Notes under the pieces: generated by a model | What the model was told of the DNA's origin: nothing | The model's input: only the letters and a program-made list of their open reading frames with translations | The model's database searches: none | DNA from: Eledone cirrhosa | Lineage: Eukaryota | DNA: 64,000 nucleotides | Direction of reading: 5' to 3' | Assembly (NCBI GenBank): GCA_964016885.1 | Contig: OZ024745.1 | Location: 60,822,001 to 60,886,000, forward strand | Program-made: the position numbers and the translations under genes | In this document: positions 3,022 to 62,616 of the stretch, in pieces | Position numbering within the stretch: the stretch's first letter is position 1 | Layout of the letters: every line of letters starts with the position of its first letter

Positions 3022-3883
3022 ACATAGAGTTTCTTTCTTTGGCTCATCAGAAACCATATCAGTGCTGGAGGTGGCCGTTGTAGTATTTGGTATATTTTAG
3101 CTTTAGTTGGATCAATTGTGAAGACGTTGACAGAGGTAAAAGTAATGGTTGAGGGTAATGACGTTAGTGGTGATGGTGGTACTGGTGGTAGTATCAGTGA
3201 GATGATGTTGCCGTATTTTGGTGGTGGTTATTACTTGCCGAACAACGATAGATCACAAGGTGACAAAACCCTGGTCTCAAAGTTGCGAGATTTTTACAAG
3301 CGGCTTCCCTCAGTTCTTGTTGGATTTACCTAGTAGAAAATTGTTGTCCGTGAGGTCGAGCGAACAGGGAACTAATTTTGTCCATATAACACTTATAAAG
3401 ATGAAACAAAACAGACGATTAAACCATTACGAATTCATAATATTCGGGTGTAGTGGGTGGGGGGCGGGGGGGGGGGGTCAGTTGGAGTCACATTTCTGAG
3501 CCTGAGTAGATATTAGAAGTTAAGAATGAATGTGGTGTTTTGAGCAGATATTAGGTGTATACATACACACACATAAATATACTACTTTTTATTCTGTGTG
3601 TGTGTCTACTTTCTTTCGCCCCCTCTGTCATGTCAGTTAACTCTTCCTCACACTTCCACTCACTCACTCACTGTTTCTCCTCTCCTCACTTCACCCCGTT
3701 CGCAACGAAAGCAATTTCTCTCTTTCTCACATTGCATTCGTTCGCGAAAGGTCTTTTTTCTAAGCGCTCATATATTCACCTAGCTTATGCTAACAGAATA
3801 ACTATGAAGCTTGTTTCCTTCCTTCTACGGTTAGCTCTACTCTTTGTTGTTTTCCTGTCTCACTCGCTTTACGCGTTTTAATT

Positions 3884-3984
3884 GTCCTAATAACTTAATT
3901 TAGTTATTATTGCACCGACGTGAGGTATATGATTTTTAATGCAATGAAATATCTATGATCGTCGGCAAATCACTGATGAGGGAC
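3884..3984 (+). ncRNA. Rewired (non type I/II/III) hammerhead-like ribozyme, predicted cut after 3929
   Basis: GTCCT [AATAACT/AGTTATT hairpin] ATTGCA CCGACG TG AGGTAT A^ TGATTT TTAA TGCAAT GAA ATATCT ATGAT CGTCGG C AAATCA CTGATGA GGGAC. All core nucleotides and stems I-III are present in non-canonical order. Confidence 0.7.
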
Positions 3985-4398
3985 TTATTTTATTACATGT
4001 TATCCATGTGCTACCAGCAGTATTTTTCTCCCCATTTTATCACATATATTTACCTAAACTGCAATTCTGTTTTTTTCTCTCTCTCTCTCTCTTACTGCTC
4101 CCTCATTCTCTCTGTTTCTCCTACTTTCTTTCGCCCCCTCTGTCATGTCAGTTAACTCTTCCTCACACTTCCACTCACTCACTCACTGTTTCTCCTCTCC
4201 TCACTTCACCCCGTTCCCAACGAAAGCAATTTCTCTCTTTCTCACATTGCATTCGTTCGCGAAAGGTCTTTTTTCTAAGCGCTCATATATTCACCTAGCT
4301 TATGCTAACAGAATAACTATGAAGCTTGTTTCCTTCCTTCTACGGTTAGCTCTACTCTTTGTTGTTTTCCTGTCTCACTCGCTTTACGCGTTTTAATT

Positions 4399-4499
4399 GT
4401 CCTAATAACTTAATTTAGTTATTATTGCACCGACGTAAGGTATATGATTTTTAATGCAATGAAATATCTATGATCGTCGGCAAATCACTGATGAGGGAC
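4399..4499 (+). ncRNA. Rewired hammerhead-like ribozyme, second tandem copy, predicted cut after 4444
   Basis: Same as 3884-3984 except one change in an unpaired linker (TG to TA). Confidence 0.7.
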
Positions 4500-4549
4500 T
4501 TATTTTATTACATGTTATCCATGTGCTACCAGCAGTATTCCCCATTTTA

Positions 4550-4935
<386 letters not shown>

Positions 4936-11121: not shown

Positions 11122-11210
11122 AGTGTATATATATATATATATATATAATCTTCGGTTTGCTTTTATCCTTCTATGTTGTTTACTTGTCCCCCTCGCCTTA
11201 CGCGAATTCT

Positions 11211-11314
11211 GGTCCCAATAACTTGTTTTAGTTATTGCTCGCACCAACCTGAGGTATCTGATTTTTAATGCGATGAAATACCAATGATGGTTGGAAAATC
11301 ACTGACGAAGGACT
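11211..11314 (+). ncRNA. Rewired hammerhead-like ribozyme, diverged copy, predicted cut after 11258 (AUC)
   Basis: GGTCCC [AATAACT/AGTTATT] GC TCGCA CCAACC TG AGGTAT C^ TGATTT TTAA TGCGA T GAA ATACC AATGAT GGTTGG A AAATCA CTGACGA AGGACT. Compensatory changes relative to the 3884 copy. Confidence 0.7.
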
Positions 11315-11368
11315 ATTTTTATCATATGTAACCCATGTGCAAACCACGCAGTATTCTTCTTTCTTCTC

Positions 11369-11409
<41 letters not shown>

Positions 11410-11950: not shown

Positions 11951-12014
11951 ATTTTGTCTGATGAAGGCATAGCATATTGTTAATATGATATCCCCGAAAT
12001 ATATATAATGAAAT
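11951..12014 (+). ncRNA. Minimal type I hammerhead in a PLE-like end
   Basis: ATTTTGT CTGATGA [decayed stem II] GAAAT ATAT ATA^ ATGAAAT. Same family as 62748-62810. Confidence 0.65.
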
Positions 12015-12353: not shown

Positions 12354-12734
12354 TCCTTTGTCAGTGTTGAACAAACGAGCAACGATGGTTGCTGGACACT
12401 ACGGCTTAATACGGGATGTTTGTTTACAAACACACCGAGCATTATAATACATGTTCAGTGAATCAATACGTACATATATATGTGTGTGCATGTATGTATA
12501 TATATATATACATACTACTGTACGTCTGTATATATATGTGTATGTACGTGTACATACTTATATTTAAGTAACAGCCGTACTAAGAGTGGGAAATGAAATT
12601 TCGTTTCATTTTTTCCGTTTATATATATATATATATATACAAAAAGTTATGAAACGAAAGGAGCTGTGTGGTTACTAAAAACAAGGTTTACGATGGTGGT
12701 TAGGACGGAACAGGAGGAGAAAGGAAGAAAGGAG

Positions 12735-12850
12735 TTTCCATCGTCAGCTGTAAATGTTTCCCGAACCGATGTTTCGGCGCTGAATTACAGGACATCGGTG
12801 TAGTTCTGGTGCGCCCGACGCCTTTTATTAATCAAAAGGCCAGGTGGAAA
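12735..12850 (-). ncRNA. Rewired hammerhead-like ribozyme, second sequence-unrelated family, predicted GUC site at 12793-12791
   Basis: Minus strand TTTCCA CCTG [GCCTTTT/AAAAGGC] GTCG GGCGC A CCAGAAC TACA CCGATGT C^ CTGTAA TTCA GCGCC GAA ACATCG GTTCGGG AAACAT TTACAG CTGACGA TGGAAA. Confidence 0.7.
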
Positions 12851-33353: not shown

Positions 33354-34319
33354 GATAGCTAGCATGTCGCCAGTGTTACCGTCTGCTCTGTATCATCCAA
33401 TGATAGCTAGCATGTCGCCAGTTTTACCGTCTGCTCTGTATCATCCAATGATAGCTAGCATGTCGCCAGTTTTACCGTCTGCTCTGTATCATCCAATGAT
33501 AGCTAGCATGTCGCCAGTGTTACCGTCTGCTCTGTATCATCCAATGATAGCTAGCATGTCGCCAGTTTTACCGTCTGCTCTGTATCATCCAAAGATAGCT
33601 AGCATGTCGCCAGTGTTACCGTCTGCTCTGTATCATCCAATGATAGCTAGCATGTCGCCAGTTTTACCGTCTGCTCTGTATCATCCAAAGATAGCTAGCA
33701 TGTCGCCAGTTTTACCGTCTGCTCTGTATCATCCAATGATAGCTAGCATGTCGCCAGTTTTACCGTCTGCTCTGTATCATCCAATGATAGCTAGCATGTC
33801 GCCAGTTTTACCGTCTGCTCTGTATCATCCAAAGATAGCTAGCATGTCGCCAGTTTTATCGTCTGCTCTGTATCATCCAATGATAGCTAGCATGTCGCCA
33901 GTTTTACCGTCTGCTCTGTATCATCCAATGATAGCTAGCATGTCGCCAGTGTTACCGTCTGCTCTGTATCATCCAATGATAGCTAGCATGTCGCCAGTTT
34001 TACCGTCTGCTCTGTATCATCCAAAGATAGCTAGCATGTCGCCAGTGTTACCGTCTGCTCTGTATCATCCAATGATAGCTAGCATGTCGCCAGTTTTACC
34101 GTCTGCTCTGTATCATCCAATGATAGCTAGCATGTCGCCAGTTTTACCGTCTGCTCTGTATCATCCAAAGATAGCTAGCATGTCGCCAGTTTTACCGTCT
34201 GCTCTGTATCATCCAATGATAGCTAGCATGTCGCCAGTTTTACCGTCTGCTCTGTATCATCCAATGATAGCTAGCATGTCGCCAGTTTTACCGTCTGCTC
34301 TGTATCATCCAATGATAGC
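33354..34319. repeat. 48-bp minisatellite, 20 units
   Basis: Unit GATAGCTAGCATGTCGCCAGTKTTACCGTCTGCTCTGTATCATCCAAW; (34314-33354)/48 = 20. Confidence 0.97.
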
Positions 34320-47724: not shown

Positions 47725-49617
47725 AGAAAATAAAACTCAACCCCAAAGTGTTCTTCTCATTCGCTAAAAAACACAAGGTTACCGTCTCCACTGTTGGCCC
47801 CCTAGTTGATGAAAATGGCACACTCCAGGACAATGCCAAAACCATGGGCGAGATACTGCAGAAACAATACTGCTCTGTTTTCAGTAACTCTGATATGGCC
47901 GATCTGGGCCGTATCAGTGATATTAACCCCCAACACACTATATCAGACATAACGTTTGGCGCCCCTAATGTCTTAGCGGCAATAAACGAAATTAAACACA
48001 ATTCAGCAGTAGGCCCCGACAGGTTCCCTGCTTTTGTCCTGAAGGTGTGTCGACACCAACTTGCAACTCCTCTTGCTAATCTGTGGAGGAACTCACTGGA
48101 CACTGGCTATATTCCTGAAAACTTTCTGTCCTAGTCCGTTGTCCCAGTCTTCAAAAAGGGAAATAAGTCCCTTGCAGTGAACTACCGTCCGATCTCACTC
48201 ACTTCTCATATTATCAAGGTATTTGAGAGGGTGGTGAGATCACGAATAACCCACTTTCTTGAAAGCAACGGCCTGCTGAACTCCAACCAACATGGGTTCC
48301 GTAATGGAAGGGACTGCCTAACGCAGCTCCTGCATCACTTTGACGATGTTTTGAGAGCCTTGGGAGAGGGCTCCAACACTGATGTCATCTACCTTGATTT
48401 CAGCAAGGCCTTCGACAGGGTTGATCATAAGATTCTACTGAAAAAACTATCCAATGTTGGTGTCTCTGGAAGGTTACTACAGTGGATCAAATGTTTCCTG
48501 ACAGGCAGAACCCAGCATGTTGTAGTCGAAGGAGTAGAATCAAGCCCTGCCAAAGTCCGCAGTGGCGTCCCACAAGGCACTGTGTTGGGCCCACTTCTTT
48601 TCATCATCTACATTAATGACATTACTGACATCATCAAACACAGTAACATCAGAATCTTCGCAGATGATTCCAAGCTCCAAAGGGTCATCAATGAGGTGGG
48701 TGACCGGACTTGCCTTCAGACAGACCTACTGGCTGTTATCCAATGGGCAGAGATGAATAATATGCTGTTGAATGAGGATAAATTTGAACTAATCCACTTT
48801 GGAAAAAAGGATGCTCTGAAACTACCATACTCTCTTCCTTCGGGTGAAACTCTGGTGGCTTCCAATAACATCAGAGACCTGGGAGTAATTGTGGACAACA
48901 ATATAAAGCTGGGCCACTCATATAAACAGCAAAGTTGATATGACCCGCAGAATGTGTTCCTGGATTCTCAGAACTTTCCAGTCGAGAGTTATCTACACTG
49001 TTGTCCTTCGCCACATTTTCCCGACCCCACCTTGAATAATGTTGTCCACTGTGGTCACCCCACACGAAACAAAGTATCATGAAAGTTGAAGCACCCAAAG
49101 GTCAATTACAAAAAAGATAGTTGGCATGACAGGCCTTGACTATTGGGGTCGATTAGAAAAGCTCAACCTTTATTCTCTCCAACGTCGCCGTGAGCGCTAC
49201 ATTATCTGTATGATGTGGAAAATATTCCATCAGCTTAGCCCAAATGATGTTGGCATCATCTTTAGTACACGCAAGGCTTGGGCCCCGTGCTATCCGCCCA
49301 GGACAAAATTTCCACTCGCATCACATAACAACAATACGGCACAATTATTTCACCTCAATTGGCGCTGCACTCTTTAATTACACCAAAACACATCAAAGCA
49401 GAGACAGATCCCATCAAGTTTGAGAAGTCTTTGGATAAATTCCTTCAAGAAATCCCGAATAAGCCCCCTACACCCGGATATGCCTCCGTAAACAATAACT
49501 CTCTGATCGACCGGTCAAAGTGCCCAAACACTGATTTGTAAGACTTCGCCAGGTGGTGCTATTAAGTTAGACATAGCCTGGGCCATTACTGGCCGAAACC
49601 TATCAAAGTTATCAAAG

Positions 49618-59412: not shown

Positions 59413-60431
<1,019 letters not shown>

Positions 60432-60471
60432 TTGTTTCGACACACGATTTCATATCAAAAACCTCGCAAAA

Positions 60472-60575
<104 letters not shown>

Positions 60576-61882: not shown

Positions 61883-61951
<69 letters not shown>

Positions 61952-61955
<4 letters not shown>

Positions 61956-62560
61956 TTTTAATGCAATGAAATATCAATGATGGTTGGCAAATCACTGACG
62001 AAGGACTATTTTTATCATATGTAACCCATGTGCAACCACGCAGTATACTTCTTTCTTCTCATGTTTTTTATATGTATTTACCTCGGCTGCGTTTGTCTGT
62101 TTCTCTCTTACTGCTTCCCCGTTTTCTCTGTTGCTCTCACCTTCTTTCGCCCCCTCTGTCAGTTACACTTTCTCTCGACTGACCACTTCCTCGCACTTCC
62201 ACTCACTCACTCTCTGTTTCTCCCCTTCTCACTTCCTCCCGTTTGGCTTGTAGTGGGTTCTCTTCTTGCTCACATCTCACTCACGTCGGACGGTCTGTAT
62301 CACGATCGCTCATGGAATCCACCCAGCTTATGCTGACCGGATAACCATGTTGCTTGTTTATTCCTATCTTTGCGTTGCTTTCATCCTTCTATGTTGTTTA
62401 CTTGTCTCACTCGCTTTATTTAGCTATTGCTCGCACCAACCTGAGGTATATGATTTTTTAATGCGATGAGTTATCAATGATGGTTGGCAAATCACTGACG
62501 AAGCACTATTTTTATCATATGTAACCCATGTGCAGCCACGCAGTATTCTTCTTTCTTCTC

Positions 62561-62569
<9 letters not shown>
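61952..62569 (+). mobile_element. Retrozyme-like repeat of the rewired-hammerhead family: 499-bp monomer plus terminal redundancy
   Basis: 61952-62069 repeats from 62451. Homologous to 3606-4550 and 11150-11377. (TA)n on both sides. Confidence 0.8.

Positions 62570-62616
<47 letters not shown>

Follow-up and report, generated by a model that had tools for sequence, protein, structure and literature searches.

The window analysed here is a stretch of 64,000 nucleotides from the 3.0-Gb, microsatellite-rich genome of Eledone cirrhosa. A short repeat insertion near position 11,211 carries a compact structured motif that is shared with several other insertions in the window. The parts of this motif and the related copies are as follows.

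11148..11375, forward strand: insertion of the family-B repeat, truncated at its 5' end and flanked by a (TA)n run on either side, recognised from its sequence and flanks (98% match to the 527-nt monomer of L010)
11212..11215, forward strand: 5' strand of helix P, GUCC, partner 11310-11313 (double changes in three of four pairs; P1 E=0.0027 among proposed pairs)
11216..11237, forward strand: hairpin Z, 8 bp, arm of the proposed four-way junction at the base of stem II (97.9% paired; double changes in 4 of 8 pairs; pairing probability 0.97-1.0)
11239..11243, forward strand: 5' strand of outer stem II, UCGCA, partner 11269-11273 (88.5% paired; double changes in 2 of 4 pairs; tree-aware best E=0.085)
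11244..11249, forward strand: 5' strand of stem X, CCAACC, partner 11289-11294, linking the far ends of stems I and II (double changes in 5 of 6 pairs; five pairs at E<0.05 among those proposed)
11250..11252, forward strand: non-bulged strand of a predicted kink-turn (U at 3n, G at 2n and A at 1n; the A at 1n occurs in all 30 representatives and is part of no search pattern)
11253..11258, forward strand: block S, comprising stem III strand GGUAU and cleavage triplet AUC (38 of 40 have U16.1, and none of 40 has G at position 17)
11259..11264, forward strand: stem I strand UGAUUU, partner 11296-11301 (95.8% paired; pair I.2 E=0.0025 over all column pairs)
11265..11268, forward strand: linker UUAA connecting stems I and II (its last A is present in 40 of 40)
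11269..11282, forward strand: block G, comprising stem II strand UGCGA, U11.1, core GAAA (11275-11278) and stem III strand UACC, placed by the alignment and the core-independent sample
11283..11288, forward strand: bulged strand of the predicted kink-turn, with loop AAU followed by G, A and U (1b-1n G-A in 30 of 30; 2b-2n A-G in 19, A-U in 10, A-A in 1)
11289..11301, forward strand: 3' strand of stem X, GGUUGG, a one-base joint and stem I strand AAAUCA, placed by the covariation tests
11302..11313, forward strand: block C, comprising core CUGACGA, A10.1 (proposed single pair with U11274) and 3' strand of helix P, GGAC (core 96-100% conserved; 10.1-11.1 paired in 70.8% of cells)
3884..3984, forward strand: family-A copy of the motif, used for comparison
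3591..4554, forward strand: family-A tandem insertion with a 515-nt period and a second motif at 4399-4499
12731..12850, reverse strand: diverged copy of the I type with the same architecture, in which Z is longer and an upstream G pairs with C11.1
61948..62580, forward strand: older insertion of B-like sequence that contains two motifs, one truncated and the other decayed

Read 5' to 3', the motif runs P, Z, outer II, X, three bases, III with AUC, I, UUAA, II, U, GAAA, III, six bases, X, one base, I, CUGACGA, A and P, and its catalytic blocks follow the non-circular order S (site), G (GAAA), C (CUGAnGA). The predicted cut lies between 11258 and 11259. After CUGAnGA, one base only is able to pair with the strand preceding GAAA; the rest of stem II is supplied by the 5' end of the motif, where the outer 5' strand sits upstream of the cleavage site rather than after CUGAnGA and would be positioned by P and Z in a four-way junction. 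I-type copies have a register shifted by one, and their C11.1 is paired by the upstream G.

The initial annotation had proposed that the differences between this copy and the one at 3884 fall where a rewired hammerhead fold tolerates them. The full tally between 11212-11313 and 3884-3984 is 16 substitutions plus one inserted C. Eight of the substitutions form four double changes, two convert a G-U into a Watson-Crick pair, and six occupy unpaired or free positions, so that none of the 35 proposed pairs is broken. The sequence bears out the change of stem II from TTGCA/TGCAA (3910-14/3940-44) to TCGCA/TGCGA (11239-43/11269-73), that of stem X from CCGACG/CGTCGG to CCAACC/GGTTGG with two double changes, the replacement of G-U by G-C in stem III, the switch of the site from AUA to AUC (11256-58) and that of the core from CTGATGA to CTGACGA. 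The claim that hairpin Z had changed solely in its loop is wrong, given that its closing pair also turned from U-A to C-G; this is the fourth double change, beside the one in stem II and the two in X. The second of the two G-U replacements, from G-U to A-U at the core-flanking 10.1-11.1 pair, is a supporting change that the annotation had missed. When 16 substitutions were placed at random, no pair was broken in 1 of 200,000 trials and four double changes arose in 23 of 200,000; because the fold was derived from the same two copies, this test is partly circular, and the main weight lies on tests across multiple families.

The motif is abundant in the genome. The core pattern gave 19,325 genome matches compared to 18 for controls, and exact 28-mers specific to the family of the 11212 copy and to the 3884 family gave 1,091 and 1,460 matches, respectively, with none in the controls of either. 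Patterns that avoid families A and B brought up many further subfamilies. A DNA search with the family-A copy, in which common words are skipped, returned nothing. The motif is also present in contigs of runs X1-X3, which come from one sample and attest presence only, and had no matches in metagenome and viral contigs, collections that do not consist of animal genomes. The carrier is a non-coding tandem repeat and a retrozyme-like element: it is pyrimidine-rich (67-72%), with one motif per unit of 470-790 nt (measured periods of 470-646 nt and also 753), and none of the three longest family-B frames matched Pfam. One family-A array (L147; G000:C1:81546789-81604890 and beyond) has a period of 515 nt, extends over at least 58 kb and displays a higher-order variant pattern, which suggests a later, satellite-like expansion.

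For the multi-family tests, 219 copies (95 distinct) were grouped into 33 clusters, each represented by one real copy, and three clusters with register-shifting insertions were dropped; all these data come from one genome. In a sequence-only MAFFT alignment of 24 diverged copies hand-chosen from the clusters, 93% of the cells pair and 20 of 34 pairs contain double changes. None of 500 shuffles reached this level, and partners that were slid along the alignment pair at just 28-47%. Further pair types were not enriched above the shuffles (68 of 500) in the same alignment. Stems I and III are 96% and 92% paired, respectively, and the 10.1-11.1 pair, although held in fewer cells (see the list above), occurs as four pair types.

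Because relatedness inflates pair counts, we also applied a tree-aware test, using our own code that is modelled on R-scape but is not R-scape. Among 30 representatives, 22-26 compensatory changes fell on the same branch compared to a null mean of 4.6 and a maximum of 14 in 200 simulations, and 7 of the 36 proposed pairs, within I, P, X and Z, reached E<0.05; in the strict test over all 5,050 column pairs, one pair only did so. With 40 representatives and with P and Z left out, there were 26-30 such changes compared to a null mean of 4.0 and a maximum of 9 in 150 simulations, and two pairs passed the strict all-pairs test at E<0.05. In this larger set, stem III is borderline (E of 0.046 and 0.065, among proposed pairs only), as is stem II at its best E value, and the 10.1-11.1 pair does not reach significance (E about 1-2), being mismatched as A-A in three representatives and as A-C in four and reading C-A in seven I-type rows, where the shifted register is needed. 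Thus, the pairs change together across diverged copies, strongly in X and I and weakly in II and III. The fold that the annotation had deduced from two copies is accordingly supported by the 24-copy alignment and the tree-aware counts, and the covariation check that it had called for came out strong for X and I, borderline for II and III and short of significance for the 10.1-11.1 pair. In a separate G subfamily (L179, L072, L194), an A stands opposite an A at 10.1-11.1 in most copies, representing either a tolerated mismatch or a different junction. Nested folding recovered P, Z, X and III (0.88-1.0) and missed stems I and II (~0.01-0.02), which is expected for pseudoknots and lends these stems no support; the folding z-scores are modest, −1.8 and −2.2.

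These results bear on the possibility that the paired changes arose through common descent of the copies or conversion between them rather than through a selected RNA structure. Indeed, the copies are related and partly chosen by pattern, and few pairs survive the strict all-pairs test. However, the same-branch double changes exceed every simulation on the null tree, the pairing signal is lost when the partners are slid, and intermediates between families A and B (L210-L212) keep the pairs at each step. Furthermore, whole monomers of the two families are 72% identical, whereas their motifs are ~84% identical. We consider this explanation very improbable.

Conservation of the putative catalytic core was assessed in a sample that does not depend on it, with copies picked by the letters of P, Z and II alone and the register judged on non-core letters. 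Among the distinct copies, 28 of 31 are in register, and GAAA, CUGA, GA and U16.1 are conserved at 96-100%; the stems in this sample display family-level paired changes. The expectation that the core would be better conserved than the linkers holds for the core and fails in part for the linkers, because the UAA of the UUAA linker is conserved to the same level, which suggests, from the sequences, a tertiary contact. An NUH triplet lies between stems III and I, with position 17 being A, C or U throughout the 40 representatives. The core is flanked by stems I and III, both of which show covariation, stem I over all pairs and stem III among proposed pairs (the E values are given above), and helix X, with its five pairs below 0.05, would link the far ends of stems I and II in three dimensions.

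The motif does not have the cyclic C-G-S order without pseudoknots that characterises the canonical types I, II and III; its order is S-G-C. Nor is there a canonical stem II: in five monomers, the core GAAA is associated with at most 1-2 bp between its strand and the strand after CUGAnGA, and one other GAAA, in family C, has a 4-bp run with that strand. Searched against Rfam, the motif gave four weak C/D snoRNA matches far below the threshold and no hammerhead, and the best 150 of 355 Rfam matches in the window are simple-repeat artefacts below the threshold. This silence says little because a canonical Penelope motif used as a control was missed as well. An unsplit S-G-C ancestor was also sought in the genome and rejected, since the 4 matches are all copies of one split subfamily.

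Natural hammerheads of S-G-C order are known from metatranscriptome RNAs (HRIMA-1 and variants; Eckert et al. 2023, PMC10085705), and the text of that study describes them as cleaving in vitro with all four stems needed. The motif shares with type SGC the block order, an extra helix strand before stem I, the full core and a short linker between stems I and II, which is 4 nt here, compared to typically three nt in that text, where the descriptor allows 0-8 nt. The same source assumes that CUGAnGA and the stem II strand are contiguous and form a block that cannot be interrupted, with stem II directly after CUGAnGA. In the motif, by contrast, CUGAnGA is followed by one base and then by P and Z, and the stem II/X strand lies 5' of the site, so that the motif would escape the type-SGC descriptor as given there (CGAAA, CUGAUGA[U]G, contiguous stem II). 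The two also differ in provenance, metatranscriptomes in one case and a genomic repeat of an animal in the other. The one-pair base of stem II is not disqualifying, given that cleavage at more than 1.2 per min is described for a natural hammerhead whose stem II consists of one pair (text of PMC3088659). In the literature covered, we found neither a permuted hammerhead reported from an animal genome nor a split stem II nor a natural k-turn in a hammerhead, although repeat databases, figures and supplements may name this repeat otherwise.

Considering these lines of evidence, we interpret the motif, with a probability of roughly 0.8, as a self-cleaving permuted hammerhead of S-G-C order, with stem II split by a four-way junction, that belongs to a retrozyme-like family and would cut its own transcript after C11258. 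An alternative is that the same helices form between neighbouring units, with the next downstream unit providing the stem II/X strand; this would yield an S-G-C hammerhead of the published order in which the whole repeat body forms a loop at the base of stem II, or else a domain-swapped dimer, and the lone copy at 11211 would be inactive. Covariation is blind to which unit supplies the strand because the units are nearly identical, the two readings coincide in a circular monomer, and dimeric action has been reported for axolotl retrozymes (in the text of PMC7229834). Nevertheless, the kink-turn can form only if X and stem III adjoin each other on both strands within a single unit, and the single-copy ensemble is dominated by the local P-Z-X-III fold at the probabilities given above, so that action between units appears unlikely.

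Stems III and X are indeed contiguous on both strands, and the loop between them fits a standard k-turn. The text of PMC5061560 describes in such a k-turn a bulge of 3 nt and, after it, a G-A and an A-G pair; the predicted one has a 3-nt bulge, then G-A and then mostly A-G (counts in the list), with a C-G at −1. The letters GA occur in several of the search patterns, the partner A in none. C11249 together with 11250-11252 reads CUGA, resembling box D, and 11284-11290 reads AUGAUGG, resembling box C; at 3b-3n and 4b-4n, the 11212 copy has U-U and G-C. According to the text of PMC5689011, this combination is of the box C/D type, with folding by ions alone very impaired. The bulge, the G-A and A-G pairs, the C-G at −1, the U-U and the G-C are thus all shared with the standard and box C/D k-turns as described in these two sources, and the G, U or A variants at 2n of Kt-23 are likewise found in the motif. 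In contrast to box C/D k-turns, the predicted one ends stem III of a hammerhead and is accompanied by neither a snoRNA guide nor a second box pair. Some I-type copies have a plain 3-nt bulge in place of the G-A pairs. A lost sixth pair in stem III had been entertained for this region and was dropped; those bases fit kink-turn positions L1 and 1n. The terms 'Kink' and 'k-turn' do not occur in the supplement text of PMC10085705. A sharp bend at this point would allow helix X to double back towards the far ends of stems I and II.

The same features raise the possibility of a real fold from which catalysis has been lost, namely a box C/D-like structure that binds a protein or recruits a reverse transcriptase and retains hammerhead-like letters. 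The box-like letters with the U-U and G-C pairs in the 11212 copy, the weak C/D snoRNA matches as the only ones in Rfam and the looseness of the 10.1-11.1 pair would fit such a structure. Yet the core letters, U16.1 and the exclusion of G from position 17 persist from family to family despite the turnover of the stems, and a binding site does not need them, which makes the loss of catalysis improbable. Within the preferred reading of an active permuted hammerhead, we tentatively put forward the idea, possible though doubtful, of a natural protein-gated ribozyme, in which a kink-turn of the box C/D type would need folding by the host protein 15.5k/Snu13 before the RNA cuts or seals, and which would represent a fourth wiring of the hammerhead with a split C block. 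If true, a host snoRNP protein would be the switch for the processing of a retroelement circle with tens of thousands of copies.

The ends of the carrier copies are informative with respect to mobilisation. In a sample of loci biased to young copies, 26 of 28 family-B copies have their 3' end at (TA)n, 113-119 nt beyond the predicted cut, and the 5' ends spread over 0-469 nt. Copies are uninterrupted across the cut site and are often longer than one unit, indicative of a circular or multimeric template. In a listing of 100 places, we found by eye 11 opposite-strand pairs within 1 kb, all 5' to 5', two of which look like one duplication; an inverted head-to-head arrangement of this kind is described for Penelope-like elements in the text of bioRxiv 2021.04.23.441226. 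The (TA)n target, the fixed 3' ends, the 5' truncation and the head-to-head inversions are all shared with Penelope-like elements that carry pseudo-LTR hammerheads, whereas the carrier lacks a coding frame. Like the animal non-LTR retrozymes described in the texts of Cervera and de la Pena 2020 (PMC7229834) and bioRxiv 10.64898/2026.07.22.740005, it is a non-coding tandem repeat with one hammerhead per unit and thousands of copies, found alongside Penelope-like elements. Those retrozymes have canonical type I hammerheads, units of ~300 bp and demonstrated circular RNA, whereas the present family has a permuted form, longer units (470-790 nt) and predicted circles.

The resident Penelope-like family comprises 34,660 candidates with frames of ~1,240 aa and the same (TA)n target. 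Its sampled members carry an ordinary type I hammerhead sequence (five long-frame elements with the canonical motif) and show no sequence likeness to the monomers, and in this one sampled family the S-G-C motif was not found as a pseudo-LTR flanking the reverse transcriptase-endonuclease frame. In 2 of 223 sequences (L061, L068), a Penelope-like sequence is fused directly to a 5'-truncated repeat copy, junctions that fit one-event copying by the same enzyme. The carrier is therefore likely moved by Penelope-like elements, although the mobilising partner is not proven. A Penelope-like element that appears intact lies at L142:2952-7185 (G000:C11), with canonical type I pseudo-LTRs, an inverted copy upstream and a frame of 1,240 aa in which no Pfam family was found. 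A resident retroelement protein has 56% identity to an Octopus bimaculoides protein, its sole species-named relative.

Several other features of the window deserve mention. A composite Penelope-like 3' end at 59537-60476 consists of an inverted terminal piece and an endonuclease fragment, and at 60185 there is a type I hammerhead-like motif with a 6-bp stem II after one extra U, the letters of which resemble the outer stem II of family A, possibly by chance. CTGATGA motifs at 11958, 57763, 62803 and 63371 share an AT-rich context in another (TA)n-associated repeat and are possibly other Penelope-type hammerheads. Elsewhere, 48135-48935 contains a LINE-type reverse transcriptase fragment (RVT_1, E=1.8e-30), and 33354-34319 a 48-nt tandem repeat of 20 copies with a 97% match that is open in one frame for 330 codons.

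Taken together, these observations can be accommodated in a model of the life cycle. Transcripts of tandem copies would fold I, II, III and X in each unit, with P and Z positioning the detached strand of stem II; the kink-turn at the end of stem III would fold helix X back, and X would tie the far ends of stems I and II, a role played by loop-loop contacts in ordinary hammerheads. Cleavage would free unit-length RNA that is then ligated into circles. The reverse transcriptase and endonuclease of a Penelope-like element would nick (TA)n and use an internal UA-rich patch ~115 nt beyond the cut for priming, and reverse transcription would run round the circle. Nicking, UA-rich priming and circle copying would account for the fixed 3' ends, the variable 5' ends and the tandem units, and the 11211 copy would be one short, 5'-truncated product of this cycle.

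The 2023 scheme recognises six permutations of three blocks that cannot be split; the motif family splits one of these and adds a four-way junction and a predicted kink-turn. It also extends the non-circular permutations, so far a feature of rare viroid-like RNAs in metatranscriptomes, to an animal genome, where the family has ~19,000 matches. Because this family is invisible to Rfam and to the published descriptors, other genomes may hide more, including those with Penelope-like elements reported to be without hammerheads. In a table of PMC8557442, many Naiads, described as lacking hammerheads, are marked 'HHR_core' or 'HHR_half_core', including those of octopus (one 'HHR_half_core') and bobtail squid, and these elements could hide permuted forms. 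The family-specific motifs do not occur in the supplement of that paper, where line breaks may hide matches, and two generic 9-mers match it in 1 and 6 places, none in a ribozyme-like context. The text of PMC10085705 raises the question of how the end of stem III reaches the contact between stems I and II in permuted hammerheads; the family offers a testable answer to it and likewise to that of ribozyme control in animal retrozyme circles without self-pairing, discussed in the text of PMC7229834. The many natural variants of the motif would make it readily amenable to assays.
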